Positions 8,845 through 32,723 of a stretch of 64,000 nucleotides of DNA are shown piece after piece (position 1 is the first letter of the stretch; each line of letters begins with the position of its first letter). The notes under the pieces were generated by a model. That model had not been told where the DNA came from. It ran no database searches and was given only the letters and a program-made list of their open reading frames with translations. A program made the translations under genes and the position numbers. Origin of the DNA: an uncultured Spirochaetales bacterium (GTDB lineage: Bacteria > Spirochaetota > Spirochaetia > CAYLLE01); assembly GCA_964384485.1 (NCBI GenBank), contig CAYLLE010000004.1, positions 7,379 through 71,378 of the forward strand. Reading direction: 5' to 3'.

Positions 8845-8845
8845 T

Positions 8846-10146: not shown

Positions 10147-10159
10147 ACTAAAATTTATA

Positions 10160-12484: not shown

Positions 12485-12506
12485 CAGTAAGACGAGGAGA
12501 TCATTG

Positions 12507-13847: not shown

Positions 13848-13874
13848 TATTATGACCATGGAGGAGCCGAACCA

Positions 13875-14339: not shown

Positions 14340-14350
14340 GAGGTTTCCAA

Positions 14351-14942: not shown

Positions 14943-14970
14943 AAGGCGCCATTAAGGCGCCTTTTCTTTT
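14943..14970 (+). terminator. rho-independent terminator after the tRNA / che operon
   Basis: AAGGCGCC (14943-14950) pairs with GGCGCCTT (14956-14963) across a 5-nt loop, followed by TTTTCTTTT. Confidence 0.7.
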
Positions 14971-16192: not shown

Positions 16193-16195
16193 TTT

Positions 16196-17131
16196 ATGGC
16201 TAAAATATGTTTTTTATTTCCCGGTCAGGGAGCACAGTATCCCGGTATGGGAAAGGACCTTTGGGAATCCCATGGCCGGATCAAAGAGATTTTTGAAGCA
16301 GCCTCAGATATAAGCGGCAAAGATTTAAAATCCCTGATCTTCCAGGGTGACGAATCCGAATTGAAAAAAACCGAAAACACCCAGATAGCTGTAACGGCGG
16401 TAAATATTGCCGCCGCTGAAGCATCGGTTTCGGCAGGAATGATACCTCAGGGATGCGCCGGGTTCAGCTTGGGTGAATATTCAGCACTTTATCAATCAGG
16501 AGTTCTCACCTTAACTGATGTGTTCACCCTGGTACATAAAAGGGGAGAAGTGATGCAAAAAGCCTCTCGGTCTCTGGAAAATCCTGGTATGACCGCGGTT
16601 ATTGGTCTCTCCGGAGATGAAGTCGGGGAAGTCATTTCCGCGGGCGGATACAATAATGTCTTTACGGCTAATTTTAACAGTCCCATACAGACCGTTATTG
16701 CCGGAAAGGGGATCGAGCTTGACAGGATCGAAAAAGAGCTCGAAAACGCCGGGGCCATGAAGATTGTACGCCTAAAGGTTTCCGGTGCGTTTCATTCCCC
16801 CTTGATGCAGCAGGGGGCTGATGAGTTTAGGGATATTATTGCCCCGTTCCGATTTTCCGATCCGACCTTAAACCTCTATTCAAATGTTACCGGCGGAAGA
16901 ATTACATCCGGAAAAGACGCAAAGGAACTATGTGTAAAGCAGATCATTTCACCAGTGTTGTGGGTTGATGAGGAACAGTCAATTATTGATGACGGCTTTG
17001 ACTTTCCTGTGGAAACAGGTCCGGGAAAGGTACTCTGCGGGTTATGGAAGTCCTTTAACAAAAAAATCCGCTGCTATCCAGCTGGTTCCATGGATGACAT
17101 TAACGCCGCGCTCGCAATATCAGAACAGTAA
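16196..17131 (+). CDS. fabD: malonyl-CoA:ACP transacylase
   Basis: FLFPGQGAQYPGMG, the active-site GFSLGEYSAL and VSGAFHSPLM are present. Confidence 0.9.
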   Translation: MAKICFLFPGQGAQYPGMGKDLWESHGRIKEIFEAASDISGKDLKSLIFQGDESELKKTENTQIAVTAVNIAAAEASVSAGMIPQGCAGFSLGEYSALYQSGVLTLTDVFTLVHKRGEVMQKASRSLENPGMTAVIGLSGDEVGEVISAGGYNNVFTANFNSPIQTVIAGKGIELDRIEKELENAGAMKIVRLKVSGAFHSPLMQQGADEFRDIIAPFRFSDPTLNLYSNVTGGRITSGKDAKELCVKQIISPVLWVDEEQSIIDDGFDFPVETGPGKVLCGLWKSFNKKIRCYPAGSMDDINAALAISEQ

Positions 17132-17157
17132 ACATAGAGAAGGAGATTTTTGGTTAA

Positions 17158-18444
17158 ATGCAGAATCGTCGTGTAGTAATTACTGGAATGGGAACGATAA
17201 ATCCCTTAGGAGATACTTTAGAAGAGTATTATCATAATTTGATCGCAGGAAAATCCGGGATAAAGCGGTGGGAATCCATAGACATGACCGGTGTTGAATG
17301 TAAAGTTGGCGGTGACTTGGGAAATTACGATTTCCAAAAAAAACTTGATACTTTCCGGGATATAATTCCGGAAAGCAAGTACAAACAAATAAAGAAACTT
17401 TTCCGGTCCGCCACCTTCTCATCTAAAATGGCTGTACTTTGCGCCATGGACGCGTACAATGATGCCGGTCTGTTCGGGGCGGATTCGAATCCGTACGATA
17501 CCAGCGTCATGGTGGCCGGTCACAATTTTAATTCAAACTACATCTTTGAAAACGCTAAGATTTATCTTGAGGATCCCGATTTTATCGCTCCCTTGAGCGG
17601 TGTCGAAGCCATTGATCCCAATATTCCAGCCACAATTTCGGAGGTTTTAGAAGTCCAAGGACCCACATTCACCCTCGGGGGTGCATGTGCAAGCGGTAAT
17701 TTGGCTCTGCGAGCGGGATTCAGAGATATTGTCTCCGGAGAATGCGTCCGCTCAGTGGTAGCTGGCCCCCCGTTTGATGTTTCACCACCGGACATTCAGG
17801 CCTCAGTCATAATAAATGCCGTAGTTGTTAAAGAGAAATACCAGAACAATCCTGAGGGGGCTTCCCGTCCTTTTGACACGGACAGATGCGGATTTGTTTA
17901 TTCCCACGGTTCCGGGACACTCATTTTAGAGGAGCTCGAATCCGCGCTCGCGAGGGGTGCTCATATCTACGGTGAAATACTCGGTGTGACGGCAAACGCG
18001 AACGCAAATCATCTGCCCATGCCCGGAGCAGCCAACCAGCAGCAGGTCATGGAGCAGGTGCTTAAAATTTCCGGTGTAAAACCCGAACAGATCGACTATG
18101 TCAACTGTCACGCAACCGGTACTCCGTCGGGTGATCTTCAGGAAATTAAAGCGGTAAAAAATACTTTTGGCAATCACACGAAGTCCCTCTATTTGAATGC
18201 TCCGAAATCGATGCTGGGGCATACCTGCTGGGCCTCCCCCCTGGTGGAAACTATCGGGGGACTGCTGCAGATGAAACACGGGAAACTGCATCCGACCATA
18301 AACATAACGGAACAGGACCCGGAGGTTGATCTCGAGATTTGTGCCAATGCACCGGTGGAACATTCAATTCAGTACATGCTCAAGAATTCCTTCGGTTTTG
18401 GGGGAATTAACTGCTGCAGTTTGATAAAACGATTTGAGGTTTAA
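17158..18444 (+). CDS. beta-ketoacyl-ACP synthase (KAS I/II fold, divergent from FabF)
   Basis: The Cys-His-His triad is intact: GGACASGN, NCHATGTPSGD, SMLGHTCWAS. C-terminal NSFGFGGIN is present. Confidence 0.85.
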   Translation: MQNRRVVITGMGTINPLGDTLEEYYHNLIAGKSGIKRWESIDMTGVECKVGGDLGNYDFQKKLDTFRDIIPESKYKQIKKLFRSATFSSKMAVLCAMDAYNDAGLFGADSNPYDTSVMVAGHNFNSNYIFENAKIYLEDPDFIAPLSGVEAIDPNIPATISEVLEVQGPTFTLGGACASGNLALRAGFRDIVSGECVRSVVAGPPFDVSPPDIQASVIINAVVVKEKYQNNPEGASRPFDTDRCGFVYSHGSGTLILEELESALARGAHIYGEILGVTANANANHLPMPGAANQQQVMEQVLKISGVKPEQIDYVNCHATGTPSGDLQEIKAVKNTFGNHTKSLYLNAPKSMLGHTCWASPLVETIGGLLQMKHGKLHPTINITEQDPEVDLEICANAPVEHSIQYMLKNSFGFGGINCCSLIKRFEV

Positions 18445-18445
18445 T

Positions 18446-19186
18446 ATGAACATTTTAATAACCGGCGGATCCCGGGGAATAGGACGGAATCTTGTCTTGA
18501 AATTCGCCCGGGAAGGATACGGCTGCGCGTTCACCTATCGGGGTAACAAGGATAAAGCGGAAGAAACCATTGCCCTGGCTAAAGAGGCAGCTCCGGATAG
18601 GGTTATCCGAAGTTATGCCCTAGATTTAGGAAATTCCGGGGAGATCGAGAAAACAGTTGACACCGTTTTGGACGACTTTGGAGATATCCACTGCCTGGTC
18701 AATAATGCCGCCATGCTCAGAGATAACGCCGCGGCGTTTATGACCGACGATGAGTGGGAATCTGTAATCCGCACCAATTTATCCGGTCCGTTTTATATGA
18801 TCCGGTCGCTCCTGATGAACTTTGTTTCGAACAGGATGGGAAGAATAATCAACATCTCATCACTGGCCCAGGACGGCAGCAGCGGTCAGGTCAATTACGC
18901 AGCCAGTAAAGCCGGGCTCATCGGTCTGTCCAACACCATAGCCCGGGAATACGGACCGAAAAATATTACATCGAATATCGTAGTCGTGGGATATGTCCCA
19001 ACCGACATGACCAGGGACAATATGGCTCAAAGACTAAAATCTATATGGGATCAATACTGTCCTATGAAGCGGAGCGGCAAAGCATCGGAAATTTCAGGTC
19101 TGGTTCACTATCTTACAACCCCTGATGCGTCGTTTATAAACGGTGAAATTATCCATGTCTCAGGCGGTCTCACCTATGTCCCATAA
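18446..19186 (+). CDS. fabG: 3-oxoacyl-ACP reductase (classical SDR)
   Basis: ITGGSRGIGR, NNAA and the catalytic YAASKAG (YxxxK) are present. GAGG lies 7 nt before ATG 18446; the track start is 18434. Confidence 0.85.
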   Translation: MNILITGGSRGIGRNLVLKFAREGYGCAFTYRGNKDKAEETIALAKEAAPDRVIRSYALDLGNSGEIEKTVDTVLDDFGDIHCLVNNAAMLRDNAAAFMTDDEWESVIRTNLSGPFYMIRSLLMNFVSNRMGRIINISSLAQDGSSGQVNYAASKAGLIGLSNTIAREYGPKNITSNIVVVGYVPTDMTRDNMAQRLKSIWDQYCPMKRSGKASEISGLVHYLTTPDASFINGEIIHVSGGLTYVP

Positions 19187-19201
19187 AAAGGAGATGATTT
19201 A

Positions 19202-20431
19202 ATGAACACAGTAGGAATAGAAAAAATAAATCTTTATGGAAGTTCACTTTACCTTGATCAGCGTGATTTAGCTGTAGCCCGGGGACAGGAGCCTGAAAAG
19301 GTTGTCTCCGACTTCCTTATCGAATCCCGTTCGGTTAGTCCGCCTTGGGAGGACACAGTAACAATGGGAGCAAATGCCGCGTTACCCATGCTGTCAAAAC
19401 AGGATCTTGAGGACATCGGTTTGTTGGTCGTGGGAACGGAAAGTTCCCTCGATTTCGGCAAACCCGTGAGTACGAATATCCACTCCGCCCTGGGACTCCA
19501 TCCGAATGTCCGGAATTTCGAGACGAAGCATGCCTGTTACAGCGGTGTAGCGGCGCTGGATACCGCAGTAAACTGGATTGCCTCCGGTCTGAACGGCGGG
19601 AGAAAGGCACTGGTCATTTCTACCGATTTCAGCAGGATGCACCTGAATACCAAAGAAGAGTTTGTACTTGGCGGTGTTGCCGCGGCGGCACTGCTCAGTG
19701 AAACCCCTAAGGTGGTTGAATATGAGACTCAAAATAAGGGGACCTGGACCACCGACGCGTATGATACATTCCGTCCCAGCGCTTTCCATGAAATCGGGAA
19801 TAATGAGGTTAGCCTTTTCACCTATATGGACGCCTTAGAAGGAGCTTTTACTCATTATCAGGAGAGAACGGGCAATCAGTTTAACTTTGATAACGATTTC
19901 AGCAGATTAACTTACCATACCCCGTTCGCGGGTATGGCTTTTCAGGCCCACAGAACATTGTGTAATCTCACAAATCCGAGACCGAAAAAGGAAGTTAAAG
20001 AAGATTTTTCCCGCCGTGTTTATCCGGGACTTCGTTTTGCCCAGCGGGTAGGGGGAACCTACGGTGCAAGCAACTTCGTCGCGTTATGCGGTCATCTTTC
20101 GGGATCTGAACCGGTAAAACCAGGCAGCAGGATCGGATTTTTTGCCTACGGATCAGGGGCTATCGGAGAATTCTATTCCGGCACGGTATGTGAAGAAGCA
20201 GTAAATGCGGTGGCTTCCATGAATATTGATGACAAACTTGCATCCAGGCGTAACGTAACGGTGGATCAATACGAAATTCTCGAGCAGCTGAAAGAAGGGT
20301 ACATTGAGAAATCGGATTTCATTCCGCAGAAAGAGGGATTTGAAGAAGTATACCGTTCCCATTACCAAGGCACCGGGAAATTGGTGCTGAAAGGGGTGAA
20401 GGGGTTCTACAGGACGTATGAACGGGTGTAG
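19202..20431 (+). CDS. HMG-CoA synthase-family enzyme, PksG/CurD-like beta-branching HMG-ACP synthase
   Basis: The catalytic Glu/Cys/His contexts are VGTESSLDFGK, KHACYSG and YHTPFAGM. The length (409 aa) and motif order match the HCS family. Confidence 0.8.
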   Translation: MNTVGIEKINLYGSSLYLDQRDLAVARGQEPEKVVSDFLIESRSVSPPWEDTVTMGANAALPMLSKQDLEDIGLLVVGTESSLDFGKPVSTNIHSALGLHPNVRNFETKHACYSGVAALDTAVNWIASGLNGGRKALVISTDFSRMHLNTKEEFVLGGVAAAALLSETPKVVEYETQNKGTWTTDAYDTFRPSAFHEIGNNEVSLFTYMDALEGAFTHYQERTGNQFNFDNDFSRLTYHTPFAGMAFQAHRTLCNLTNPRPKKEVKEDFSRRVYPGLRFAQRVGGTYGASNFVALCGHLSGSEPVKPGSRIGFFAYGSGAIGEFYSGTVCEEAVNAVASMNIDDKLASRRNVTVDQYEILEQLKEGYIEKSDFIPQKEGFEEVYRSHYQGTGKLVLKGVKGFYRTYERV

Positions 20432-20434
20432 CTG

Positions 20435-21256
20435 ATGGACAGGGTCATTATTTCCCGGGATTCAGGAGTATGCTACATAACCCTCAATGACGGCTCTAAC
20501 GGGAACCGGCTTGACGGCCGTTTCATCAATGATATCCTTAATGGTCTTCGTGCTGCCGAATCGGACGGTTCGGTAAAAGCGGTCATGTTCCGTTCCTCGT
20601 CTCCTGTGTTTTCCCTGGGGATGAATCTGGATTTAGCTGCCAAGAAATCCGGTAAAGGAGAAACAGCTGAGACGGCAGTAAAGTCTTACGGCAGAATGCT
20701 CAGCAGGATTCGCGGTCTGGTCAAGCCGGTTTTGGCTTTGGTGGAGGGGGAGGTTAAAGCCGGCGGTGTGGGCATTGTATGTGCCTGTGACGCTGTTCTT
20801 GCGTCCGAAACGGCATCATTTGAGCTGGGGGAGGTGTTATTCGGTTTGATACCTGCCAACGTGCTGCCCTATCTCCTTTTACGGATCTCTCCGCAAAAAG
20901 CCCGGTATCTAATCATGACAGCAAAAAAAATCGACGCTGCGGAAGCCCTGGCGATCGGTTTAGCTGACGAAGTCTTTCCCGCACAAGCAGCGGAAAAGAC
21001 GGTCCGGAAAAGACTAAAAAATATATGCCGGTCATCTCCGAATGCATTAGCTGAAGTGAAACAATTTACGTCTAAGCTGCTCGATTTATCTTTTCATGAA
21101 CAGCTTGATCCGGCGGTAGAAAAGCTCACGGAGATGCTGAAAAACGAAGATATACTGGAAGGAATCAGGTCCTTTCAGTCGGGAAATCTGCCTGTCTGGT
21201 TCGGCAAGTTTTCACCGAAAGAACCAATTTCGCTACAACTGGAGGAAAAGGAATGA
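20435..21256 (+). CDS. enoyl-CoA hydratase/crotonase-fold protein (ECH1, PksH-like dehydratase candidate)
   Basis: It has a crotonase fold: VFSLGMNLD, ALVEGEVKAGGVGI, FELGEVLFGLIP. It sits directly after the HMGS homologue. Confidence 0.7.
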   Translation: MDRVIISRDSGVCYITLNDGSNGNRLDGRFINDILNGLRAAESDGSVKAVMFRSSSPVFSLGMNLDLAAKKSGKGETAETAVKSYGRMLSRIRGLVKPVLALVEGEVKAGGVGIVCACDAVLASETASFELGEVLFGLIPANVLPYLLLRISPQKARYLIMTAKKIDAAEALAIGLADEVFPAQAAEKTVRKRLKNICRSSPNALAEVKQFTSKLLDLSFHEQLDPAVEKLTEMLKNEDILEGIRSFQSGNLPVWFGKFSPKEPISLQLEEKE

Positions 21257-22002
21257 AAGAAACAATCCGTTCCGAAATGGATGAACATGGTATTGCTTAT
21301 CTGTATATGGAAGACAAAGAGGGGAAAAACATTTTTTCCGACACCTTTATAGAAGGATTCATCCGGGAAATAGAACACATCGAGACTGAACTCGAACCCT
21401 CTGTGCTCATCTTAAAAGGACTTGAAGATGTATTCTGCGGAGGAGCAGAAAAGGAAGGCCTTCTTGACCTTTGCGACGGTAAAGTTGTGGTAAAAGATCT
21501 CGTCCTCTCGGAACGGCTGATAAATACTCCGTTTCCGGTCATAGCGGCTATGGAAGGACACGCAATGGGCGGAGGATTAGTTCTGGGCCTTTGCAGCGAT
21601 ATCATTATAATGGCCCGGGAGAGCCGATACGGAGCTGTGTTCATGACTTTAGGCTTTACCCCCGGAATGGGGACAACGACGCTTCTGCCGGGACTTGTGG
21701 GACCGTATATCGCAAATGAAATGATGTTCACCGGAAAAAGGTACCGGGGTTCCGAACTTGCCGGGAAAGGTGTACCGATCAATTATATTCTCCCGAAAAA
21801 AGAAGTTGTGACAAAAGCAGAAGATATCGCCCGTCAAATCGCTGAGCGGAATAAAAAATCGGTCTATTTACTGAAATATGCTCTTAGCGCAAAAAAGAAA
21901 AAACTGCTTGTCGACGCGCGGCTGCAGGAGGATATGATGCACCGGATTTCGTTCGGATTTTCGGAAACAAAAAAAATAATAGAAGAATTTTACGCTGGAT
22001 AG
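21253..22002 (+). CDS. enoyl-CoA hydratase/isomerase-fold protein (ECH2, PksI/CurF-like decarboxylase candidate)
   Basis: AAMEGHAMGGGLVLGL, YGAVFMTLGFTPGMGTT and EMMFTG match the ECH2 signature as I recall it from PksI. The start overlaps the ECH1 stop (ATGA). Confidence 0.7.
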   Translation: MKETIRSEMDEHGIAYLYMEDKEGKNIFSDTFIEGFIREIEHIETELEPSVLILKGLEDVFCGGAEKEGLLDLCDGKVVVKDLVLSERLINTPFPVIAAMEGHAMGGGLVLGLCSDIIIMARESRYGAVFMTLGFTPGMGTTTLLPGLVGPYIANEMMFTGKRYRGSELAGKGVPINYILPKKEVVTKAEDIARQIAERNKKSVYLLKYALSAKKKKLLVDARLQEDMMHRISFGFSETKKIIEEFYAG

Positions 22003-22019
22003 AATAAGGAGTGTACCCA

Positions 22020-22832
22020 ATGATTACGATAGATTACACCGGTAAATCCGTTCTCATAACAGGCGGCACGAAAGGGATAGGGAAAGCTGCGGCATTGAAT
22101 TTCGCCAGTGCCGGAGCCAGAACGTATTTGACATACAAATGGGGATCCGCCGATGAGTCCGCCCTGTTCGATGAATTCCGTCAAACAGGAGGTCCGGAAC
22201 CGGTACTGATTCAGGCTGATGTGTCTGTTGAGGAAGATACAAAAGCGCTTTTTTCAAAGATTGCTGAAACCGAAAAAAAGCTTAACGTTTTTATAAGCAA
22301 TGTAGGCTTCGCTTCCACCCCTCAGAGTCTAAAAGATTATAAAAAGCGGTCTCTCTTCAAAACACTTGAATACAGTACCTGGCCGCTTATCGATTACACC
22401 CTCATGATAGAAAAAACTTTCAATGCCTATCCTGACTACATCCTGGGTATATCCAGTGACGGTCCCGATCATTTCTATAAAGGATACGACTACGTGGCGG
22501 CCTCAAAGGCGCTGCTTGAGTTCTTCTCGAAGTATCTGTCGGCCCATCTTTTTGATGAAAACTGCAAAGTTAATGTAATCCGTTTCGGTACAGTGAAAAC
22601 CGAGTCCTTTGACGCGGTGTTCGGTAACGATTTTTTTGAGTATCTCAAATCGGAAGGAATATCTTCTGAGAGGATCCTGACACCAGCCGAATGCGGTAAA
22701 ACAATTTTCGGAATCTGCAGCGGTTTTATGGATACCGTGAATGGACAAATAATCACCGCGGACCGGGGTATAACCTATATGGATAACACCATGAGGCGGT
22801 ATCAGCGCTGGAAAGAAGAAAAGGGACAGTAG
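22020..22832 (+). CDS. SDR-family enoyl-ACP reductase-like protein (FabL/FabI-type Y-x6-K)
   Basis: ITGGTKGIGKAAA is present. YDYVAASKALLE gives Tyr-x6-Lys, the enoyl-reductase spacing, rather than the YxxxK of ketoreductases. AAGGAG lies 8 nt before ATG 22020; the track start is GTG 22011. Confidence 0.6.
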   Translation: MITIDYTGKSVLITGGTKGIGKAAALNFASAGARTYLTYKWGSADESALFDEFRQTGGPEPVLIQADVSVEEDTKALFSKIAETEKKLNVFISNVGFASTPQSLKDYKKRSLFKTLEYSTWPLIDYTLMIEKTFNAYPDYILGISSDGPDHFYKGYDYVAASKALLEFFSKYLSAHLFDENCKVNVIRFGTVKTESFDAVFGNDFFEYLKSEGISSERILTPAECGKTIFGICSGFMDTVNGQIITADRGITYMDNTMRRYQRWKEEKGQ

Positions 22833-22856
22833 ATTCTATACAAAATCTATACATTT

Positions 22857-22938
22857 CAGCAATTTCAGGTAATGACGATTTATGTAATTGCTGGATACAG
22901 TGCTTAGAGGTTGATAGAAGCGGCAATTTACGGTATGG
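22857..22938. repeat. two REP-like units in the 169-nt intra-operon gap (site E)
   Basis: CAGCAATTTCAGGTAATG (22857-22874) and CGGCAATTTACGGTATGG (22921-22938) both match the unit consensus. TTTATGTAATTGCTGG (22879-22894) lies between them. Confidence 0.5.
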
Positions 22939-23001
22939 TACCCTCTATACCATTAAAACTGTGCCGGATAACCGGCTGCACCATTTAGAAAGGAGTGAAA
23001 A

Positions 23002-23247
23002 ATGACAAAACCTGAAGTCATGGAAGTAATCAAAAAAAATATCGTCGAAAATTTAGACGACATAGAAATGGATGATATTGATCCGAAAAAGTCTATGAAA
23101 GATTACGGAGCAAATAGTCTTGATATGATTGAGGTTGTCTCCTGTTCCATGCGGGAACTCAACATTAAAATTCCGAGATCGGAATTGGCAGATATTGCCA
23201 CAATAGACGAACTTGCCGATAAGTTCATGGAATATGTAGAAAATTAA
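23002..23247 (+). CDS. acyl carrier protein (non-housekeeping type)
   Basis: The protein is 81 aa. The phosphopantetheine site context is DYGANSLDMIEVV. A strong AAAGGAG Shine-Dalgarno is present. The sequence is unlike the canonical AcpP DLGADSLDTVELV context. Confidence 0.85.
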   Translation: MTKPEVMEVIKKNIVENLDDIEMDDIDPKKSMKDYGANSLDMIEVVSCSMRELNIKIPRSELADIATIDELADKFMEYVEN

Positions 23248-23275
23248 TCAAATTGACCGAGGTGCGGAGGATATA

Positions 23276-24532
23276 ATGTCAGATATTCTAAAATATAGCT
23301 TTGCTGATTTCCATTACAACGATAACCCTGATGTCCTGTCTCCGCCGGAAGACTTTATCAAATGGGTAAACCATCCGGCGGTTAAGAACGGTTTCAGTTT
23401 TACCGAGCAGCAGCTTCTTGCCGCACCTCGGGCACGTACCGAAATCCTGAGTAATATTGACAATCAGAAGCGGAAAATCATCAACCTTACATCGTATAAT
23501 TACCTCGGTCTTTCCACTCATCCCGAGGTTATTCAGGCCGCCAAGGAAGGTCTGGATCAGTACGGGATGGGTGCATCGGGAGCTCCCATGCTGTCCGGAA
23601 CCTTCGATCTGCATACCGAATTTGCCAGACGGCTGGCTGAATTCAAACAGAAAGAAGCGTGCCTGGTGTACTCAAGCGGTTACGGCGGCAACATCGGGGC
23701 CATTCAAGGAATAATGCGGAAAGGTGATATCCTGATCCTCGATGAGAAATGTCACGCCAGTCTGGTGGACGGGGGAACCCTGGCACAGGTGAAAATGCTT
23801 TTCTTTGAGCATAACAATCCCGAATCACTGGTCGCCATGCTGGAACGGGCGAAAGGAAAACGTGTTCTCGTTGTAGTGGAGGGAGTTTATTCCATGGATG
23901 GAGACCTGGTTAAACTTCCGGAGGTTGTCGAAATATGCGACCAATACGGAGCAGGACTCTATCTCGATGAAGCCCATTCAACACTGATGTTCGGCGAAAA
24001 CGGTAGGGGTGTGGCGGAACATTTCGGTCTGGAAGACAAAGTCGGAGTCAGCTTTGGTACACTCAGTAAGTCTTTCGGAGGTGTAGGGGGATTTATCTGC
24101 TCAAACGCCGCTCTTATTCAATACATGAAAGGGTATTCCCATCCGTGGAACTTTTCCTGTGCCATATCACCGCCGGTTGTTGCAGGGCTTATAAAAGCAC
24201 TTGAAGTTGCCACCAGGGACTCTTCTCTTCGGGATAAGCTGTGGGAAAATACAGCGTATCTTAAAAAAGGACTCACCAGTTTGAACCTCAATTTGGGAGA
24301 TACCGCATCCCAGGTCATCCCGGTTATTATCGGTCCCGACGGAACCAAACTCATGTCCTTCGCGGCGGAGATGCAGAAGCGGGGACTCTTCCTTCAGCCG
24401 GTAGACTTCCCGGCCGTACCTGCCAATGCGAGGCGGTTCAGAATATCCGTTTCTTCCCAGCTGACGAAAGAAGATATGGATACTGTTCTAAATATCATCG
24501 AGGATGTAATTGTTAAAGGTTTGAAGTCCTAA
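23276..24532 (+). CDS. alpha-oxoamine synthase (PLP-dependent acyltransferase; serine palmitoyltransferase / BioF / KBL family)
   Basis: LTSYNYLGL, SGYGGNIG, VVVEGVYSMDGD, LDEAHS and the PLP-lysine motif GTLSKSFGG are present. There is a ~60-aa N-terminal extension. Confidence 0.85.
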   Translation: MSDILKYSFADFHYNDNPDVLSPPEDFIKWVNHPAVKNGFSFTEQQLLAAPRARTEILSNIDNQKRKIINLTSYNYLGLSTHPEVIQAAKEGLDQYGMGASGAPMLSGTFDLHTEFARRLAEFKQKEACLVYSSGYGGNIGAIQGIMRKGDILILDEKCHASLVDGGTLAQVKMLFFEHNNPESLVAMLERAKGKRVLVVVEGVYSMDGDLVKLPEVVEICDQYGAGLYLDEAHSTLMFGENGRGVAEHFGLEDKVGVSFGTLSKSFGGVGGFICSNAALIQYMKGYSHPWNFSCAISPPVVAGLIKALEVATRDSSLRDKLWENTAYLKKGLTSLNLNLGDTASQVIPVIIGPDGTKLMSFAAEMQKRGLFLQPVDFPAVPANARRFRISVSSQLTKEDMDTVLNIIEDVIVKGLKS

Positions 24533-25086
24533 TGACCGATTCTTCTGAGCCTGACTATCAATCTCTTCTGAGGAAGTTTAGACGCAAGCCTCTCTTCCCG
24601 CTGGAACAGGACGACTTGTTCGTCCGGGTAGATTATTCCGGAGAAGATATAAAAAAACTAATTCCGCACCGGGATCCCTTTCTTCTGGTAGACAGAATTA
24701 CCGGTCTCGATGTAACTAACCGCCGAATTATCGGAGAAAAGCACCTCTCCCCTGCATTGCCGGTATTCCAGGGGCATTTCCCGGGATATCCGGTATATCC
24801 CGGAACTCTGGAGGTGGAGATGCTCGGTCAATTAGGTCTTTGTCTCTTCCCGTTCATCCTGAGCGGTACCACGGATATCCCGGAATTTTCTGATCAGACC
24901 GCCATCCGGGCTACCCGGATTATCGGCGCGTACTATGTAGAGCCTGTTCTGCCGGATACTACCGTGACAATACTTTCACAAGGGTATGAGTATGACGGGT
25001 ATTTCGGCAGAAGCATCGGCCAGGTTATATCCGGCGGCAAAGTCTGCTGTGTTGCCGCCGGCGAGGTTATTTTCCTAGAATCGTGA
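24532..25086 (+). CDS. FabZ/FabA-like hotdog 3-hydroxyacyl-ACP dehydratase
   Basis: IPHRDPFLLVDRI, the catalytic His in FQGHFPGYPVYPG and Glu in LEVEMLGQ are present. The start overlaps the AOS stop (TAATG). There is a ~35-aa N-terminal extension. Confidence 0.8.
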   Translation: MTDSSEPDYQSLLRKFRRKPLFPLEQDDLFVRVDYSGEDIKKLIPHRDPFLLVDRITGLDVTNRRIIGEKHLSPALPVFQGHFPGYPVYPGTLEVEMLGQLGLCLFPFILSGTTDIPEFSDQTAIRATRIIGAYYVEPVLPDTTVTILSQGYEYDGYFGRSIGQVISGGKVCCVAAGEVIFLES

Positions 25087-26319
25087 CATAATCAATACTG
25101 CATTATGGCCGCCGAATCCGAAAGAATCGGATAAAATGTGTTTTATATTTTTATCTTCCCTCGGTTCCTTGATCACATTAAGTTCAATCTTCGGGTCCTG
25201 GTTAAACTGATTTATTGTCGGATGTATGATTCCCTTCTCGAACGCCATAATCGAAGCGATGGCTTCCACACTGCTCGACGCGGCGATAAGGTGTCCGATC
25301 ATCGATTTTGTACTGTGTGCCGGACATTCGCGGATATAATCGCCGAAACTCATCTTGAGAGCCTTTGCTTCCATTTCATCACCCATAGGAGTGGAGGTGG
25401 CATGACAATTTATGAGGTCAATATCCTCCGGATTAAGCTTGGCCATATCCAAGGCCATTTTCACTGCCCGGGAGGAACCACGCGCTTCCGGATGGGGCGC
25501 AACTAAGTCATAGGCGTCGCTGGATACGCCGAAACCGGTGATCTCACAGTAGATTTTGGCACCCCTCCGTTTGGCATGTTCTAATTCTTCCAGACAAATA
25601 CAGCCGCCTCCTTCTCCCATAACAAACCCGTCCCGGTCTTTATCGAACGGCCGCGACGCTGTCTCCGGGGAATCATTCCTCGTAGACAGAGCCATTATAT
25701 TGCCGAACGCCGCAACACCTGGTCTGCACAGGGCTGCCTCAGCACCGCCCGCAATCATGGCATCGGCCATTCCGTTTTTGATAAGCATCCAGGCAAGAAA
25801 AATGGCATGGTTACTGGTGGCACAGGCTGAATTGACCGAAAATGTGGGAGCCTGCAGATTGTATTCCTGAGAAAGAAAGGCGGTGGATGTGTTCGGAATT
25901 GCGCTTACAATATAAAAGGGAGAAGCGCCGCTCATACCGGTGGTGTGTACTCTGGTGATATTATCAACATGAGCATTTACCCCGCCGGCACCGGTTCCGA
26001 TTATCGCACCATATCGTTCCGGGGCTTTATCAACATCCAATCCTGAATCTATGATCGCCTGGGCTCCCGCTACATGACCAAAAACGATATACCGGTCGAG
26101 ACGCCTCCGCATCTTCTTTGATTTGAAATACTCTGATACATCGGGTATATCAACCTCCGCCGCAATCTGAACCGAATAATCTGATAAATCGGTATTCTGA
26201 GCTATCCGAACCCCGTTTTTTCCTTTAAGGAGATTTCCCCAGAACTCTTCTACGGTATTTCCGATTGGATTTATTGTCCCAAGACCGGTTATTACAACCC
26301 GCACATCATTATTATTCAT
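25075..26319 (-). CDS. fabF: beta-ketoacyl-ACP synthase II
   Basis: These are canonical FabF motifs: NSACATSNHAI, NCHATSTPMGD, KSMIGHLIAAS, SFGFGGHNAVL. Confidence 0.92.
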   Translation of the reverse strand: MNNNDVRVVITGLGTINPIGNTVEEFWGNLLKGKNGVRIAQNTDLSDYSVQIAAEVDIPDVSEYFKSKKMRRRLDRYIVFGHVAGAQAIIDSGLDVDKAPERYGAIIGTGAGGVNAHVDNITRVHTTGMSGASPFYIVSAIPNTSTAFLSQEYNLQAPTFSVNSACATSNHAIFLAWMLIKNGMADAMIAGGAEAALCRPGVAAFGNIMALSTRNDSPETASRPFDKDRDGFVMGEGGGCICLEELEHAKRRGAKIYCEITGFGVSSDAYDLVAPHPEARGSSRAVKMALDMAKLNPEDIDLINCHATSTPMGDEMEAKALKMSFGDYIRECPAHSTKSMIGHLIAASSSVEAIASIMAFEKGIIHPTINQFNQDPKIELNVIKEPREDKNIKHILSDSFGFGGHNAVLIMSRF

Positions 26320-26644
26320 TAATTTTACCTTTCCTCTTTAAGTAGTGATAAATTTTTCCAGTATGTGGAATTGAAACGGTTATACTCGATCTTGTCAAGA
26401 CATTTCTGTTGAATAGAGGAATTCCCATTTTATACCTTTTGGCAACAGAAGGGAGCATAATTCTCAGGCAAAGCCGAAAATAGATTGAATAAAATGAGAA
26501 TTTCAGACTTTACATAAGTAGAAAGGGTGTATTCTAAATTGCAAATTTTGAATAGCCGTGTTTAACACCATTTCCCTTTTTATATTGAAACTTTTCCGAT
26601 CCTTCCGTAATATGTGGAAAATCTAAATATAAAGGAAGTAACAA

Positions 26645-27190
26645 ATGGCCTACTTTAAATCCTACGAAGAACCTCTAAATGCTGTGATGCAGCGGATGAT
26701 ATCTAAGACATCCAGGCCAAAGATATTGGAATACGGTCCCGGCGGTTCAACCAAACTGATGATGAATACTGCCCCTGAATCTGAAATATTCTGTATAGAA
26801 CATAACCGAAAGTGGTATGAGCATTATAAAACCGAATTTGAGGAATTCTCCCCCAATAAACCCGATCTCCATTATATTCCGCTCAAGGAGAATTATGTAA
26901 CTCTGTCGCGAGAAAAATTTGATCCCCGATCTCTTGATTTGATCTACGTGGACGGCCGGAAAAGAGTTGCCTGCCTCGACTTAGCAAAAACACTTATCAA
27001 ACAGGAAGACGGAATTATCGTTCTGCATGATGCCGAGCGTCCCCGTTACCGGAAGGGACACAAGGAATGGCCTTTGGATAAGAAAATATGGGCCGGTCCG
27101 AAAGGGAGCCGGACATTGATCCTGGTTACCGACCCCAAAGATTATGAAGCACTAATCCACCTGGAGACGGAGCCTCCAAACCGGCGGTGA
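26645..27190 (+). CDS. class I SAM-dependent methyltransferase-like protein
   Basis: ILEYGPGGST (motif I-like), IYVDGRKR and IIVLHDAERP resemble small O-methyltransferase-fold proteins. The call is weak. Confidence 0.4.
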   Translation: MAYFKSYEEPLNAVMQRMISKTSRPKILEYGPGGSTKLMMNTAPESEIFCIEHNRKWYEHYKTEFEEFSPNKPDLHYIPLKENYVTLSREKFDPRSLDLIYVDGRKRVACLDLAKTLIKQEDGIIVLHDAERPRYRKGHKEWPLDKKIWAGPKGSRTLILVTDPKDYEALIHLETEPPNRR

Positions 27191-27191
27191 C

Positions 27192-27284
27192 CAGTAATTC
27201 CCGGTCAACCCGATTGATGTAATTGTGTGCAATAAACAAATTATAAATTTAAACGCGGTTGTGATCACCGGAAATTGCCGTTTT
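27192..27284. repeat. REP-like inverted pair between convergent genes (site B)
   Basis: CAGTAATTCCCGGTCAAC (27192-27209) and GATCACCGGAAATTGCCG (27263-27280, inverted) flank a 53-nt AT-rich spacer. The left arm starts 2 nt after the methyltransferase stop. The right arm contains the stop and last codons of the gene at 27265..28281. Confidence 0.8.
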
Positions 27285-28281
27285 CGGCCAGAAACGCTTT
27301 AATTGTTGTTTTAAAACCGGTCCGGTAGTCCGTCCCGGGCCGAAAACTCAACAGCTCTTCTGCCTTGGAGATATCAAAATGGAAATCATGGGTCACGTGA
27401 TCAACCCGGTATTTGGTTAAGGGCGGTTCTCCTTTTATTCCGAAAAGCCGGTAGGAGTTCTCCATTACATACGCGGCAATGCCTGCGGGTAAGGGGGGAA
27501 GAGGGAAACGGATCGGATCGATACCCAGCAGAGAAGCACAGTAATACAGAATGTCTCTCCACGTTACCCATTCTCCTCCCGTAATATTGAATATTTCCCC
27601 GATACACCGGGGATTTTTCAGCGCGAGGATTACCGAATCGGCAAAATCATCCACATATACCGGACAGGTAAGCTTTTTCCCGCTGCCTATTACGGGCATG
27701 ATGCCCTGGAGCATGGCATCAAACATATTATAGAATGTGGTCCTGTCTCCCGGTCCGTACACATTTCCCGGACGCAGAACCGTGGTTTGGAGATCATCCG
27801 AACCGTTTTGCACCACCATGTTTTCCGCTTCAAGTTTCGTCCGCTGATACGCCGACACCAGGGGGTAGTAGGGGCCATTCTCGGTAGAATTTCTGTGATG
27901 CCCGAAACCGTGCACGGAAATTGAACTTATGTAAATAAATCTTCCAATGGATAAACTGCCGGCCCAGCGTAAAAGATGGTCCGTAAGTTCAGCATTCGCC
28001 CTCCTGAACTCCTGCTCACTTCCCCAATCGCCCACCTTTCCGGCGGCATGAATAACCGCACCGCATCCTTTAAGGGCTTTCTCGGTATCATCTCCCTGCT
28101 CCAAAGAGGTCCGCATCACTTCATGTCCCATGGCGGAAAGCTCGGATAATTCCCGGGGCGGATTTTCCCGCCGGAATAAGCATCGGACAGTATATCCCGA
28201 TTGAGCTAATTTCCAGGCAATTCTTCTTCCGATGAATCCGGATGCTCCGGTTACTGCTACCGTGTTTTCAGAGTTTTTCAT
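27265..28281 (-). CDS. NAD(P)-dependent epimerase/dehydratase-fold (3-beta-HSD-like) reductase
   Basis: VAVTGASGFIGRRI is the Rossmann motif and SAYQRTKLEAE the catalytic YxxxK. Confidence 0.8.
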   Translation of the reverse strand: MKNSENTVAVTGASGFIGRRIAWKLAQSGYTVRCLFRRENPPRELSELSAMGHEVMRTSLEQGDDTEKALKGCGAVIHAAGKVGDWGSEQEFRRANAELTDHLLRWAGSLSIGRFIYISSISVHGFGHHRNSTENGPYYPLVSAYQRTKLEAENMVVQNGSDDLQTTVLRPGNVYGPGDRTTFYNMFDAMLQGIMPVIGSGKKLTCPVYVDDFADSVILALKNPRCIGEIFNITGGEWVTWRDILYYCASLLGIDPIRFPLPPLPAGIAAYVMENSYRLFGIKGEPPLTKYRVDHVTHDFHFDISKAEELLSFRPGTDYRTGFKTTIKAFLAENGNFR

Positions 28282-28285: not shown

Positions 28286-29038
28286 TTATTGAATAATTAA
28301 TACTAGATCCAAGGCAAGTCCTGTCACAATGTGAAGAATAAGCCCAGGAATAATAGACCGGGTCCGGACGGTTAAATATCCGAGAAATATACCGAACGGA
28401 AGCGCCGCAAATGTTTCCGGAAAGGGATGCTGTATATGAATCAGGGCGGAAGGGATTGCCTGGAAAGAAGCAATAGCTATGGAGAATATGAAATGTTCTT
28501 CCTTTTTGAGTCCGTCAATTCTGTCAAGAATTTTAAGGAAAGGCAGAATCATTAATCCCCGGAACAGAAATTCCCAGGGAAGATAGTAGAGGAGTATGTA
28601 CAAAAGAAAATGGACAGGAAGGATCCACCAGTCCCCCCGGGAAAACATCGTGCCTATGGATTTTGAATACGGATAAAATTCACCCATAGGACCCGCATAC
28701 GCATTCAGAACAGCCGCTGCGGCGAAACCGCCGAGGAAAAGGAGAGCTAAGGGCCATGGTATCTTAATGCGGCTGCGGGAAAATCCCATATCTGTAAATT
28801 TATCGCCTAATATCCACATACTGAATGCAGGCACCGCTCCGAACAGCAGAAAGCTCAGGATAAAGCGGAAAATATATGAAGGCAGATCCCCCGGAAGATT
28901 TTTAAGTCCCGGAATGGAAATGGTAAATGAATACTGAAATCCCGGCGGCCGAAGATAGAGGTAAAGGATAATTACAAGCCCGGAAATTAAGAGGTAAATT
29001 AGAGGATTAAGGTGTCTAAATTTCCCGCGTTTTAGCAT
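28286..29038 (-). CDS. CPBP-family (CAAX-type) intramembrane protease-like membrane protein
   Basis: The protein is polytopic. WEFLFRG is motif 1-like, and SALIHIQH and LILHIVTG are His motifs. Confidence 0.65.
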   Translation of the reverse strand: MLKRGKFRHLNPLIYLLISGLVIILYLYLRPPGFQYSFTISIPGLKNLPGDLPSYIFRFILSFLLFGAVPAFSMWILGDKFTDMGFSRSRIKIPWPLALLFLGGFAAAAVLNAYAGPMGEFYPYSKSIGTMFSRGDWWILPVHFLLYILLYYLPWEFLFRGLMILPFLKILDRIDGLKKEEHFIFSIAIASFQAIPSALIHIQHPFPETFAALPFGIFLGYLTVRTRSIIPGLILHIVTGLALDLVLIIQ

Positions 29039-29053: not shown

Positions 29054-30220
29054 CTACCTCTCTAAGGTGTCGACGATGTATCCTGCAATCTCTTCTGCGC
29101 CGTTTTGTGCCGGAAGTTTATTTAAATTCGCGGTTTTTTCATCGATTTGCTGTGTATCCTTCATTAAACCTGTTAATAGTTCCAGAAGTTTTTTCGCAGT
29201 AGGTGCGTACCATCCGTACCCGTTATTTACGATAAAATTTTTGTTGTACTCTTCACTGGGCGCGCCTATTTGAGTGATGATGAAGGGCTTTCTACTCATC
29301 ACCGTCTCCATGGTATAATTTGCGCCGCACTTTCCGGCAATTACATCAGCCGCCTGCATGAGAATATGCATGTCGTTCCGGTAACCGAGAGGAATAACAT
29401 CTTCGGAATTGAATCGCCGCTCTATTTTTGTAAATAATTCGGTGTTCCTTCCTGTAACAACCAGTACTTGAAAACTCGGATTGATCCGCTTTACTTCTTT
29501 AAGAAGACCTTCCAGCAGTTCCTCCGTGGAGCCTAGTCCTTCTCCGCCCTCAGAGAGGAGGAGAGTGAATTTTTCTTGATTCAGATCAAGCTTTTCACGA
29601 GCCGCCGTTTTTGAAAACCGTTCTTCCACGAATTGGGGACGGACCAGAGGATTTACCCGCTTTATTTTTTCAGGCGGGAGTCCCATATTCAAAAACGCCT
29701 TTTTAGCGTCCTCAGCCATCACAAAGGTCATGTCGGCATCACAATCCTGGAGTAGATATGCTCCTCCAAGATCGTTCCGTGTTAAAAAGAGGGGGACATC
29801 GCTTTCCATCTCCTCTCTGGCAGCCTGAAAAATGCTGCCGCACCCCCAATGGGTGGTAATAATAAGATCAGGTTTATAGCCCAGGATATAGCCTATAGCT
29901 TTAGGAATAGCTTCCTGGATAATATCATTCAAGATGGACATAGTTAAAACAGGAAGACCATCACCCAAAAGTCCAAAAGCAAAGCGGGCAAAATTAGGCT
30001 TTGAAAGCAGTGTTTTCCAGGATTGCCGGTAGTACCGGTCAAGTTTTTTGTCCTTGAATTCGTCCGCGGGCTCTAGAAAACGGAGATCCCAGTCCGGTCT
30101 AGCGATTTTGAGATAATGACCAATGGCCTGAGCACTGACGATATGGCCGGATCCCGCTAAAAAATAGGGAAGAAGTATTTTTTTTCTGTCATTTCCAGTT
30201 CTGTCTTTCTGTTTTTCCAT
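29054..30220 (-). CDS. MGDG-synthase-like / GT28-family lipid glycosyltransferase
   Basis: N-terminal LAGSGHIVSAQAI is MGDG_synth-like. The C-terminal GT-B half reads VVTGRN..AADVIAGKCGANYTMETV. Confidence 0.7.
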   Translation of the reverse strand: MEKQKDRTGNDRKKILLPYFLAGSGHIVSAQAIGHYLKIARPDWDLRFLEPADEFKDKKLDRYYRQSWKTLLSKPNFARFAFGLLGDGLPVLTMSILNDIIQEAIPKAIGYILGYKPDLIITTHWGCGSIFQAAREEMESDVPLFLTRNDLGGAYLLQDCDADMTFVMAEDAKKAFLNMGLPPEKIKRVNPLVRPQFVEERFSKTAAREKLDLNQEKFTLLLSEGGEGLGSTEELLEGLLKEVKRINPSFQVLVVTGRNTELFTKIERRFNSEDVIPLGYRNDMHILMQAADVIAGKCGANYTMETVMSRKPFIITQIGAPSEEYNKNFIVNNGYGWYAPTAKKLLELLTGLMKDTQQIDEKTANLNKLPAQNGAEEIAGYIVDTLER

Positions 30221-30469: not shown

Positions 30470-30979
30470 TCATGATGTTAATTCCGATCCCTTAGCCATC
30501 AGTACCTTACCTGTCCGAACCACTTCAATAAGACCGAACGGTTTTAAAACTGTAAGCACCGAATCAAGCTTCTCACTGCTTCCGGTTACTTCAAAGGTAA
30601 CCATGTTCTCTCCCACATCCACGGGATCACATTTAAACGCGGAAGCCACCTGGAGTATATCGGTCCGGTTTTCCGAGTTGCTTTCCACCTTAATAAGAGC
30701 TAACTCACGCTGAATAATATCATGACCAGTTTGGTCGGTGGCATGGATTACATCTACCAGTTTATTTAGCTGTTTCAGAATCTGCTCAAGGGTCTCTTCG
30801 TCCCCTGTGGCCACAATATTCATCCGGGAAAAGGAGGGATCATCGGTTTCAGAAACAACAAGACTGTCTATATTGAATGCCCGCCGGGCGAACACAAGAG
30901 ATATCCGGATAAGTACACCCGGTTTATTGCTTACCAATAAACTTATTGTGTGTTTCCGTAAAGCTGTTTCTGTTGTCAT
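30470..30979 (-). CDS. ilvN: acetolactate synthase small (regulatory) subunit
   Basis: The ACT domain reads [31 protein letters not shown]. The gene overlaps the ilvB stop by 4 nt. Confidence 0.88.
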
Positions 30980-32688
30980 TTTTTCGTCCTTTCTTTGGCT
31001 AAGGTTCTAGGCGGCTCCAAGATCATGTTGGCCATCGAAGCGCCGGCCGGAATCATTGGATATACATTTTCCTCTTTTTCGACTTCCACATCAATCAAAC
31101 ATGGTCCTTCGTTATATTCTAAAGCATTCCGGATAATCCGCTTGACGTCGGCGCTCCGTTTAATTCGGAAGCCTTTACACCCGTAACTTTCAGCAAGTTT
31201 AACAAAGTTCGGATTTCCTTCCAGATCGACACCGGAGAGCCGGTTGTCATAAAACATGCTTTGCCACTGACGAACCATTCCGAGATAATGGTTGTTTATA
31301 ACCACTATTTTAAGCGGAAGTTTATGGATTACTGCGGTGGCAAGTTCATTTAATGTCATCTGGAATCCGCCGTCGCCAACTATCGCAATAACCAGTTTTT
31401 CCGGATTGGCGAACTGGGCGCCGATTGCAGCAGGCAGTCCAAAACCCATCGTTCCGGCTCCACCGGAAGAAAGCCAGTGAAAGCGGTGATCCACCAGGTA
31501 GTATTGGGCAGCCCACATTTGATGCTGTCCTACATCCGTCGCGACCACGGCTTTACCCTCACTCTGTTTGAATAATTCATCAATAACATGCTGGGGTTTC
31601 AATTTTCCGCCTTTTCGGTACCTTAAGGGGTATTCCCGTTTCCATCGGTTAATCTGCTTTACCCAGTCTTCGGTATCGGTAGATTTGATGTAGGTGAGCA
31701 GTTTCTCAACCACGAGTTTTGCATCTCCGATAACCGCCGTGTTCACTTTCACGGTCTTATTGATCTCCGAATCATCAATATCAATATGAATTTTAATCGC
31801 ATTTGGACAGAATTTCTTAATATCACCGACAATCCGGTCATCCCAGCGTGATCCGATGGACATTATCAGATCGCAGTTATTAATCGCCATATTGGCATAG
31901 GCTGTTCCGTGCATTCCCGGCATTCCCAGACTAAGCGGATGTGTTTCCGGGAAGCACCCTTTTCCAAGAAGGGTATTCGCTACCGGTATCTGGAACCGTT
32001 CGGCAAGGTAGGAAACCGGCTTTTCCGCCCCGGAAAGAACGGCACCGTGACCGACCAAGAGCACCGGCCTTTTGGCGTTCTCTAAAAGCTGCGCGGCTTT
32101 TTCTATAGCCCCCGGATCTCCCTCTTTCGGAATCCTGTAACCGGGAAGATGAAAGTCTTCGCGATAATCAGGCTCAATGAGAGCACTGGAGACATCTTTC
32201 GGAACATCGATTAAGACTGGTCCGGGCCGTCCTGTTTTCGCGAGATGGAATGCTTCTTTAACGATGCGGGGAGTTTCTTCCGGATTTTTTATAAGATAGG
32301 AGTGCTTGACCAGAGGGAAGGATATCCCTGAAACATCGGCTTCCTGGAATGTATCGAGCCCCAAATTCGCTGTAGCCTGCTGTCCGCAGAATATTACCAT
32401 GGGGATTGAATCCATGTGAGCCGTAAGGATACCCGTTATTGTATTGGTTGCTCCGGGTCCGGAAGTTACCATAACAACGGCGGTTTTTCCCGACGAACGG
32501 GCATATCCGTCGGCCATGTGAGTCGCCCCCTGTTCATGCCTGGTAAGCACCAGTTTTACGGACGAGTCCACCAAAGCATCGTAAATAGGAATGGCACTGC
32601 CTCCGGGAATCCCGAAAATAAAATCAATACCCTCCTGATTGATAATATCCACAATAACTTGTGCACCCGTTCTCAATTTTGCTGACAT
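30976..32688 (-). CDS. ilvB: acetolactate synthase large subunit (ThDP-dependent)
   Basis: [28 protein letters not shown] and the ThDP motif GDGGFQM..NN are present. ATG 32688 lies 6 nt after AGGGGG; the track start is GTG 32691. Confidence 0.92.
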
Positions 32689-32723
32689 CACATGCCCCCT
32701 AATAAAGTTAAAAATACAGATTA

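Follow-up and report, generated by a model that had tools for sequence, protein, structure and literature searches.

A type II fatty acid synthase with an HCS beta-branching cassette, linked to a serine palmitoyltransferase-like enzyme in an uncultured spirochaete: a possible route to branched ceramide-like lipids

The stretch of DNA considered here (the window: 64,000 nt of contig CAYLLE010000004.1, from an uncultured Spirochaetales bacterium) contains an operon, at positions 15050-25086, that combines genes of a type II fatty acid synthase (FAS), a polyketide-type beta-branching cassette, a dedicated acyl carrier protein (ACP), an alpha-oxoamine synthase (AOS) resembling serine palmitoyltransferase (Spt), and a GNAT-fold acyltransferase. 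We interpret the operon and the adjoining fabF gene, with moderate confidence, as a self-contained type II FAS/polyketide synthase (PKS) line that ends in an Spt-like condensation and leads to a branched ceramide-like lipid. The product is best read as a branched-chain N-acyl amino lipid, that is, as ceramide-like, and the cluster probably makes a branched, sphingolipid-like membrane lipid. A preliminary description of this DNA, made by eye, had likened the ACP, the AOS, the GNAT and a nearby reductase to the ceramide toolkit of Caulobacter. Every open reading frame (ORF) named there is present and correctly placed; several of the proposed relationships have since changed, as described below.

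The most distinctive feature of the cluster, which that description missed, is a beta-branching cassette built around a 3-hydroxy-3-methylglutaryl (HMG)-ACP synthase (HCS). Between the GNAT and ACP genes lie, in order, FabD, a stand-alone ketosynthase (KS), a FabG-like reductase, a homologue of HMG-CoA synthase, two crotonases, and an enoyl reductase of the short-chain dehydrogenase/reductase (SDR) type, all on the plus strand. The KS (17158-18444) is PksF-like; its best NCBIfam model is PRK07103 ('polyketide beta-ketoacyl:ACP synthase'), at 314.6 bits and below cutoff. For the HCS (19202-20431), the best matches in a search of PDB sequences are CurD (6.5e-73) and PksG (3e-68), which outrank the HMG-CoA synthases of primary metabolism, and the Glu/Cys/His catalytic positions, assigned by eye from the translation, are E80, C112 and H239. 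The first crotonase, the putative dehydratase ECH1 (20435-21256), resembles PksH and methylglutaconyl-type hydratases; its best NCBIfam model is PRK07112, and its PDB matches include isohexenylglutaconyl-CoA hydratase (3.7e-29) and PksH (1.6e-26). The second, the putative decarboxylase ECH2 (21253-22002), scores 271.9 bits on PRK07110 (cutoff 215) and matches PksI (5.5e-44) and CurF (1.5e-39), with the next crotonase in the PDB at only about 1e-20. As judged from sequence, the KS, HCS, ECH1 and ECH2 together are an HCS beta-branching cassette as that term has been defined (PMC11522927). Its presence in the cluster implies that the logic of acyl supply differs from that of the Caulobacter toolkit. 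The earlier suggestion that an in-cluster FAS takes the place of an acyl-ACP synthetase stands in part: there is no AMP-binding gene in the operon, but the FAS also holds HCS, ECH1 and ECH2.

The elongation set itself is complete within the cluster. FabD, the malonyl-CoA:ACP transacylase (16196-17131, plus strand), scores 262.3 bits on TIGR00128, whose cutoff is 260.9. The FabG-like 3-oxoacyl-ACP reductase (18434-19186, plus) matches PF13561 and PF00106 and reaches 221.8 bits on TIGR01830, below cutoff, and the enoyl reductase (22011-22832, plus) is FabL/FabI-like (PF13561 at 4.6e-32; best NCBIfam model FabL, below cutoff). A FabZ/ApeI-like hot-dog dehydratase (24532-25086, plus; PF07977), whose homologues carry the ApeI-like PF22818, closes the operon, and the convergent gene for FabF, the beta-ketoacyl-ACP synthase II (25075-26319, minus), scores 497.1 bits on TIGR03150 against a cutoff of 493.75. 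A tblastn search with two phosphopantetheinyl transferases (PPTases) from clusters of this type found no Sfp-type PPTase in the window, including the site adjacent to fabF (26403-26581). The 93%-identical relative L001 has a PPTase gene after fabF (13130-13843), as do most related loci; the ACP of the window must therefore be activated by a PPTase encoded elsewhere.

The acyl chain is presumably delivered to the AOS on the dedicated ACP (23002-23247, plus), which is the sole ACP in the operon. It matches PF00550 (best NCBIfam model PRK07117, 61.3 bits, cutoff 79), has the attachment motif GANSLDMIEVV with no Trp after the Ser, and ends 28 nt before the AOS gene (23276-24532, plus). Because an ACP gene immediately precedes the AOS gene in every related locus that reaches upstream of it, this adjacency is not due to chance. 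The ACP has no detectable similarity to Sphingomonas AcpR, and its earlier likening to the ACP of the toolkit is not upheld.

The AOS belongs to an unclassified, Spt-like clade. It matches PF00155 (4e-53) and, among PDB sequences, is closest to the Spt of S. multivorum (2e-75). Its catalytic set, comprising the PLP-binding Lys265, the stacking His160, Asp231/His234 and the carboxylate-binding Arg389, aligns with Lys265, His159, Asp231/His234 and Arg390 of Spt. An attempt to classify the enzyme through its nearest relatives at 50% clustering was uninformative, because the stand-alone relatives outside the family (36-47% identical) are equally unclassified. The nearest non-family relatives (P0366, P0367, P0368 and P0373; 36-45% identity) are fusion proteins of the types ACP-AOS, FAAL-ACP-AOS, AOS-acyltransferase and PilZ-AOS-FemAB_like, and the first two of these argue for an ACP-borne acyl substrate. 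More distant AOS genes, 33-36% identical, are carried on Bacteroides and Phocaeicola plasmids of 43-95 kb (e.g., NZ_CP072250.1, 3756-4952).

The preliminary description had allowed that the AOS might be a plain BioF; in that case the FAS-like genes would build pimeloyl-ACP for biotin, an arrangement comparable to the FAS-type genes that occur inside the bio operons of Desulfovibrio. Several public annotations do call homologues 8-amino-7-oxononanoate synthase, and the AOS reaches 338.5 bits on the bioF model TIGR00858. That score is nevertheless below the cutoff of 426.45, as are the scores on the curated Kbl and ALAS models relative to theirs, and a check of genes in the window and of the annotated flanks of related loci turned up no bioA, bioB or bioD. 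In addition, HCS, ECH1 and ECH2 would yield a methyl branch rather than a straight dicarboxylate, and the first gene of the operon encodes a homologue of bCerS, the bacterial ceramide synthase. We consider a role in biotin synthesis to be very improbable and for practical purposes dismiss it.

The gene at the head of the operon (15050-16192, plus) encodes a 380-amino-acid tandem-GNAT protein that we place in the bCerS family as a putative N-acyltransferase. It gives a weak match to PF00583 in Pfam and no match in searches of NCBIfam or PDB sequences. An AlphaFold (AF2) model built from 37 homologues (pLDDT 88.8) has two GNAT domains, and its top Foldseek matches are MAB_4324, the clavulanate tandem GNAT, a GlcN N-acetyltransferase, MshD and a histidine N-acyltransferase. 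On the basis of the model, the protein is of the N-acyltransferase type and not a PKS loading decarboxylase. A CurA/SxtA-type loading decarboxylase was considered and rejected, both because no GNAT in the PDB matched by sequence and because Foldseek leads to tandem N-acyltransferases. The comparison with BioF2 that had been proposed for this gene proved not to be relevant, since Pfam gave no FemAB or Acetyltransf_6 match.

The bCerS reference came from a tblastn search of the AOS against plasmid records, which led to a replicon of Sphingomonas parapaucimobilis (L019). The order of genes there is an NAD(P)H-binding SDR, an ACP, Spt (833 bits on NF047603, cutoff 670), an ATP-binding protein, LptF, LptG, a desaturase and a 383-amino-acid 'N-acetyltransferase'. 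This order matches that of Swit_3897 (CerR), 3899 (AcpR), 3900 (Spt), 3905/3906 (LptF2/G2) and 3908 (bCerS) (PMC11324152, table S2). The protein in the Swit_3908 position (L019, 22140-23291) was taken as the bCerS reference; it is thus an ortholog set by synteny. By BLASTP, residues 2-374 of the GNAT align with residues 3-382 of the reference at 31% identity (E 4e-68), and hhalign gives a probability of 100% over 369 columns (E 2e-66). By comparison, bCerS orthologs within the Proteobacteria are 41-45% identical (PMC11324152). Because this Sphingomonas protein is by far the closest characterised relative of the GNAT, the two can be assigned by sequence to one family, and the earlier suspicion of a relationship to bCerS is borne out by full-length homology. 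Across the related loci with upstream coverage, a bCerS-like gene heads the AOS operon in 7 of 17 (the window, L001, L003, L004, L006, L016 and L017) and is usually accompanied by FabD. In L017, a spirochaete contig, two tandem bCerS-like genes (376 and 377 amino acids) occupy the operon head (427-2740). A 371-amino-acid protein in L029 was considered as a displaced GNAT and discarded, having no similarity to the GNAT and matching glycosyltransferase references in the synteny comparison.

Conservation was surveyed over about 30 loci from Spirochaetota, FCPU426 and Firestonebacteria, 17 of them with upstream coverage; nine loci, mostly short, were contributed by a metagenome scan. With the exception of locus L013, the core of KS, FabG, HCS, ECH1, ECH2, enoyl reductase, ACP, AOS and dehydratase is present wherever the contig allows. 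The enoyl reductase immediately precedes the ACP in every locus with upstream coverage, the dehydratase comes after the AOS in nearly all loci whose coverage extends downstream, FabF adjoins the cluster in almost all, and an Sfp-type PPTase is found in most. AOS identity is 70-93%, even between the three phyla, which suggests a conserved structural product. A membrane-lipid context likewise recurs, in the form of MMPL transporters, PF03706 (LPG_synthase_TM) proteins, GT28-like glycosyltransferases, and pairs of an SDR with a CPBP-type membrane protein; MMPL or RND transporters are found near the cluster in several loci.

Whereas the identities of the genes, the homology to bCerS and the conservation of the core are established at the level of sequence, we infer the order of steps, chain length, branch position, amino acid, and roles of the SDR and glycosyltransferase in the following pathway. 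Malonate would be loaded onto the dedicated ACP by FabD. The Cys-containing KS, HCS, ECH1, ECH2 and the SDR enoyl reductase would then convert a beta-ketoacyl-ACP to a beta-methyl acyl-ACP. In the version of this step that accounts for every gene most economically, acetoacetyl-ACP would become isovaleryl-ACP, an iso-branched primer made wholly from acetate. The chain would next be lengthened by FabF, FabG, the hot-dog dehydratase and the enoyl reductase. The AOS would then join it to an amino acid in a decarboxylative Claisen condensation, and the released product would be a branched 2-amino-3-keto long-chain base. In the lineage of the window, the amine would be N-acylated by the bCerS-family tandem GNAT. 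Finally, reduction of the 3-keto group may fall to the convergent extended SDR, and transfer of a sugar to the GT28-like enzyme; these last two roles are plausible, on the basis of recurrent proximity only.

A number of observations weigh against this interpretation, which draws on sequence and structural-model evidence. First, the cassette is not canonical: the KS has a catalytic Cys, there is a single ACP, and that ACP is without the beta-branching Trp flag. In canonical HCS cassettes the KS is a KS0, which decarboxylates malonyl-ACP and is incompetent for condensation (PMC11522927). The KS of the window retains a Cys177, His318, His355 triad, as do all five sequences aligned, and by its sequence could condense. 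Haines and colleagues reportedly described in 2013 separate donor and acceptor ACPs, the acceptor being flagged by a Trp after the Ser. Second, a bCerS-like gene is adjacent in only the 7 loci of 17 listed above, with none within the ±10 kb examined in the others, and it is absent from the flanks of all loci of the FCPU426/Firestonebacteria type. Third, L013 (OY843583.1, a Spirochaetia chromosome; 3244-13262) consists only of enoyl reductase, ACP, AOS, dehydratase and FabF, with an SDR-CPBP pair upstream, and has no HCS cassette, KS, FabG, FabD or bCerS-like gene within 10 kb. Fourth, the SDRs linked to the cluster are only 27-63% identical to one another, and they score on the OleD and HpnA models about as they do on CerR.

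The remaining points against it concern the AOS. The enzyme falls below the cutoffs of all three curated Spt equivalog models (NF047600, 319 bits of 640; NF047599, 298 of 500; NF047603, 262 of 670), and the simple equation of AOS with Spt is therefore not sustained. For comparison, a true alpha-type Spt scores only 342 on the CFB-type Spt model, which shows the known Spt clades to be just as distant from each other. In the substrate pocket, Ser102-Arg103 and Arg378 of Sphingomonas Spt are replaced by Ala103-Pro104 and Asp377. Near the amino-acid site this removes two positive charges and introduces a negative one, which is unlike the serine enzyme to which the AOS had been compared. The replacements are shared by all related loci in which the motif was read, and serine may consequently not be the substrate. 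The Spt of S. multivorum is also without Arg378, having Val there, and the pocket differences thus lower, but do not exclude, the use of serine.

The main rival explanation is that the product of the cluster is a small specialised metabolite or a signal, and not a membrane lipid. A short beta-branched acyl-ACP (isovaleryl or 3-methylcrotonyl) would be condensed with an amino acid to an amino-ketone, which the GNAT would then N-acylate or N-acetylate, giving a product that resembles the CqsA/LqsA-type alpha-hydroxyketone signals or arises by SxtA-type starter chemistry. Elsewhere, HCS cassettes are characteristic of polyketide secondary metabolism (PMC11522927), the Ala103-Pro104 and Asp377 pocket is unlike that of Spt, the nearest AOS relatives occur in fusions of PKS/NRPS (nonribosomal peptide synthetase)-like type, and PPTase and efflux components (OEP, MMPL, ACR_tran) are close by. 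Such a product would, however, have to be reconciled with the very high conservation across phyla and the near-invariant core, with the genuine FabF, full reductive cycle and bCerS-family acyltransferase, and with the recurrence of lipid glycosyltransferase and LPG_synthase_TM neighbours. Moreover, the AOS scores 208.7 on the autoinducer-synthase model, whose cutoff is 428, and its identification as an alpha-hydroxyketone autoinducer synthase is excluded on that score. We regard a small-molecule product as unlikely, and continue to prefer a branched ceramide-like lipid.

The two genes proposed for the later steps towards that lipid, and a third between them, lie on the minus strand and are transcribed towards the operon. 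The extended, epimerase-fold SDR (27265-28281; PF01370, PF01073) is a candidate keto-lipid reductase. Its position and its GASGFIG and YQRTK motifs are as first reported, and 2.2 kb separate it from the end of the operon and 2.7 kb from the AOS; its strand required correction, as did that of the glycosyltransferase (29054-30220; PF04101, PF06925), which is indeed a lipid type, GT28/MGDG (monogalactosyldiacylglycerol)-synthase-like. Between the two, and paired with the SDR, is a gene for a CPBP/Rce1-like membrane protein (28286-29038; PF02517). The best NCBIfam models of the SDR are OleD (148.9 bits) and HpnA (130.7 bits), both below cutoff. It aligns over its full length with Sphingomonas CerR (L019, 13567-14463) at 28% identity (E 4e-27), within a group that is very broad; CerR itself scores 51-55 bits on OleD and 82.7 on HpnA, lower than the SDR on both. 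By sequence, then, both proteins are members of a broad HpnA/OleD/3-beta-HSD (hydroxysteroid dehydrogenase)-like group.

It is possible, though not the version we favour, that the SDR, CPBP protein and glycosyltransferase form a separate envelope or glycolipid module that does not act on the AOS product, for example a nucleotide-sugar epimerase with an MGDG-type synthase acting on diacylglycerol. The three genes are on the strand opposite to the operon and are missing from about half of the related loci, the L030 copies have SIS, GHMP-kinase, nucleotidyltransferase and sugar-epimerase genes as neighbours, sequence conservation among the linked SDRs is low (the 27-63% identity given above), and the glycosyltransferase scores best on the diglucosyl-diacylglycerol synthase models of NCBIfam. 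Against a separate module, the SDR best matches the lipid-acting OleD and HpnA types rather than GalE (37 bits), aligns full length with CerR, and is found near the cluster in 11 loci with varied gene orders, including the HCS-less L013. The SDR-CPBP pair recurs in L001, L006, L013, L029 and L030 and at the place of P0080, and a similar glycosyltransferase in L001, L029 and L030 and at the place of P0080. About 11 of 23 loci have an epimerase-fold SDR gene within 10 kb, often with the CPBP gene and sometimes with a GT28-like glycosyltransferase and a PF03706 protein. Co-conservation of the GNAT and reductase with the AOS is accordingly partial: SDR, CPBP protein and glycosyltransferase recur, but the bCerS-like gene and the SDR are each confined to the fractions of loci already given. 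A PF03706 protein is encoded downstream of fabF in L002, L004, L005, L006, L023, L024, L029, L030 and L031, sometimes accompanied by an HpnA-like SDR and a glycosyltransferase, a combination that we take to resemble the hopanoid-associated HpnA/HpnB/HpnL set.

The surroundings of the cluster are those of a spirochaete. The best protein matches of the window are to metagenome-assembled genomes of Spirochaetales, and the window encodes FlaA and, directly upstream of the cluster, a chemotaxis operon (10160-14788) of cheA, a cheW-cheR fusion (12504-13847), cheX and cheY. A strong terminator-like hairpin in the cheY/GNAT gap (14943-14963, plus; an 8-bp stem with six GC pairs, then a T-run) appears to close the che operon, and the GNAT gene is probably, as had been proposed, the first of its transcription unit. 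In scans of the whole region, counts of promoters and terminators did not exceed those of shuffled controls, and this hairpin is anecdotal. Farther upstream (866-4841), genes for a cytidylyltransferase, a 594-amino-acid protein with a C-terminal methyltransferase domain and an ATP-grasp/LAL_C2 ligase are followed by one for an N-acetylmuramoyl-L-alanine amidase; this row may be a set for sugar or cell-wall modification. Between fabF and the SDR gene is an ORF of 181 amino acids (26645-27190) with a weak Methyltransf_24 match; it is 67% identical to a copy in L001 and was not detected in other loci. Finally, genes of branched-chain amino-acid biosynthesis (ilvBN, ilvB and two LeuA-like genes) recur beside the cluster in differing arrangements, as at 30470-32691 of the window (ilvN, ilvB), at the start of L003, and at 17175-20323 of L016, which may be a coincidence or may reflect a link to the supply of branched precursors.

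Full-text literature searches brought up no account of an HCS cassette working with an AOS or of sphingolipid genes in spirochaetes, and searches on isovaleryl- or HMG-ACP returned nothing relevant. Bacterial sphingolipid synthesis (Spt, bCerS, CerR) has been defined only recently, and its mapping across phyla is ongoing. More tentatively, we suggest that Spirochaetota, FCPU426 and Firestonebacteria make unrecognised methyl-branched sphingoid or amino lipids. The chains would be built on a dedicated ACP by a type II FAS that has captured a polyketide HCS cassette, with a branch derived from acetate rather than from branched-chain amino acids or S-adenosylmethionine, and would be released by a new Spt-like AOS clade that possibly uses an amino acid other than serine. 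In many lineages they would be N-acylated by a bCerS homologue and glycosylated, and the product might be a major outer-membrane lipid. An implication is that Spirochaetota and two candidate phyla would be added to the range of the pathway, and that there would be a third route of acyl supply, by way of a polyketide-type beta-branching cassette, beside AasR/AcpR and the iterative type I PKS SgaA. The lipids should then contain acetate-derived, methyl-branched long-chain bases, which could serve as taxon-specific biomarkers in anoxic sediments. The AOS clade has a distinct substrate pocket, and the amino-acid specificity of this pocket is open to direct measurement.

Among known systems, the closest are the proteobacterial Spt/AcpR/AasR/bCerS/CerR pathway and SgaAB, which is fed by a type I PKS. 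In the ceramide pathway of Caulobacter and Sphingomonas, which consists of Spt, AcpR, AasR, bCerS and CerR (PMC11324152), the AOS likewise is ACP-dependent and has an adjacent dedicated ACP. A further likeness is the roughly 380-amino-acid tandem GNAT homologous to bCerS, at 31-36% identity over its full length, and many of the loci described here have an extended-SDR reductase nearby. The two systems differ in that the cluster ACP is unrelated to AcpR, AasR is absent here and the chain would be built in the cluster by the type II FAS and HCS cassette, the AOS lies outside the curated Spt clades, and the host is a spirochaete rather than a proteobacterium. The SgaAB system of Pseudomonas fluorescens MYb115 produces PKS-derived sphingolipids, and a linked SDR has been proposed to reduce the 3-ketosphinganine (PMC12134224). 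Common to SgaAB and to the scheme proposed here is that a dedicated polyketide- or FAS-type machine, and not the general acyl pool, feeds the AOS (Spt activity in the case of SgaAB). However, SgaA is a single iterative type I PKS, whereas the proteins here are discrete and of type II, and SgaAB has neither an HCS cassette nor a bCerS homologue in its cluster.

The cassette itself has its counterparts in the HCS cassettes of trans-acyltransferase and cis-acyltransferase PKSs, such as PksFGHI-AcpK and CurB-F (PMC11522927). The HCS is nearest CurD and PksG, ECH1 resembles PksH, ECH2 resembles PksI and CurF, and the small discrete ACP and stand-alone KS are found in both settings. In contrast, neither the window nor the annotated flanks of related loci showed a PKS megasynthase, the KS has a catalytic Cys where canonical cassettes have a KS0, the lone ACP is without the acceptor Trp flag, and the cassette stands inside a FAS and has an AOS as its terminal enzyme. 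If the cassette takes acetoacetyl-ACP, its chemistry would also parallel the alternative isovaleryl-CoA pathway of myxobacteria, in which MvaS, LiuC, AibAB and AibC act on CoA-bound intermediates and the decarboxylase is of the glutaconate-CoA-transferase-like type. In both, an HMG thioester would pass through 3-methylglutaconyl and 3-methylcrotonyl intermediates to isovaleryl; the difference is that the sequence of reactions proposed here would be ACP-bound and would use a crotonase-type ECH2.

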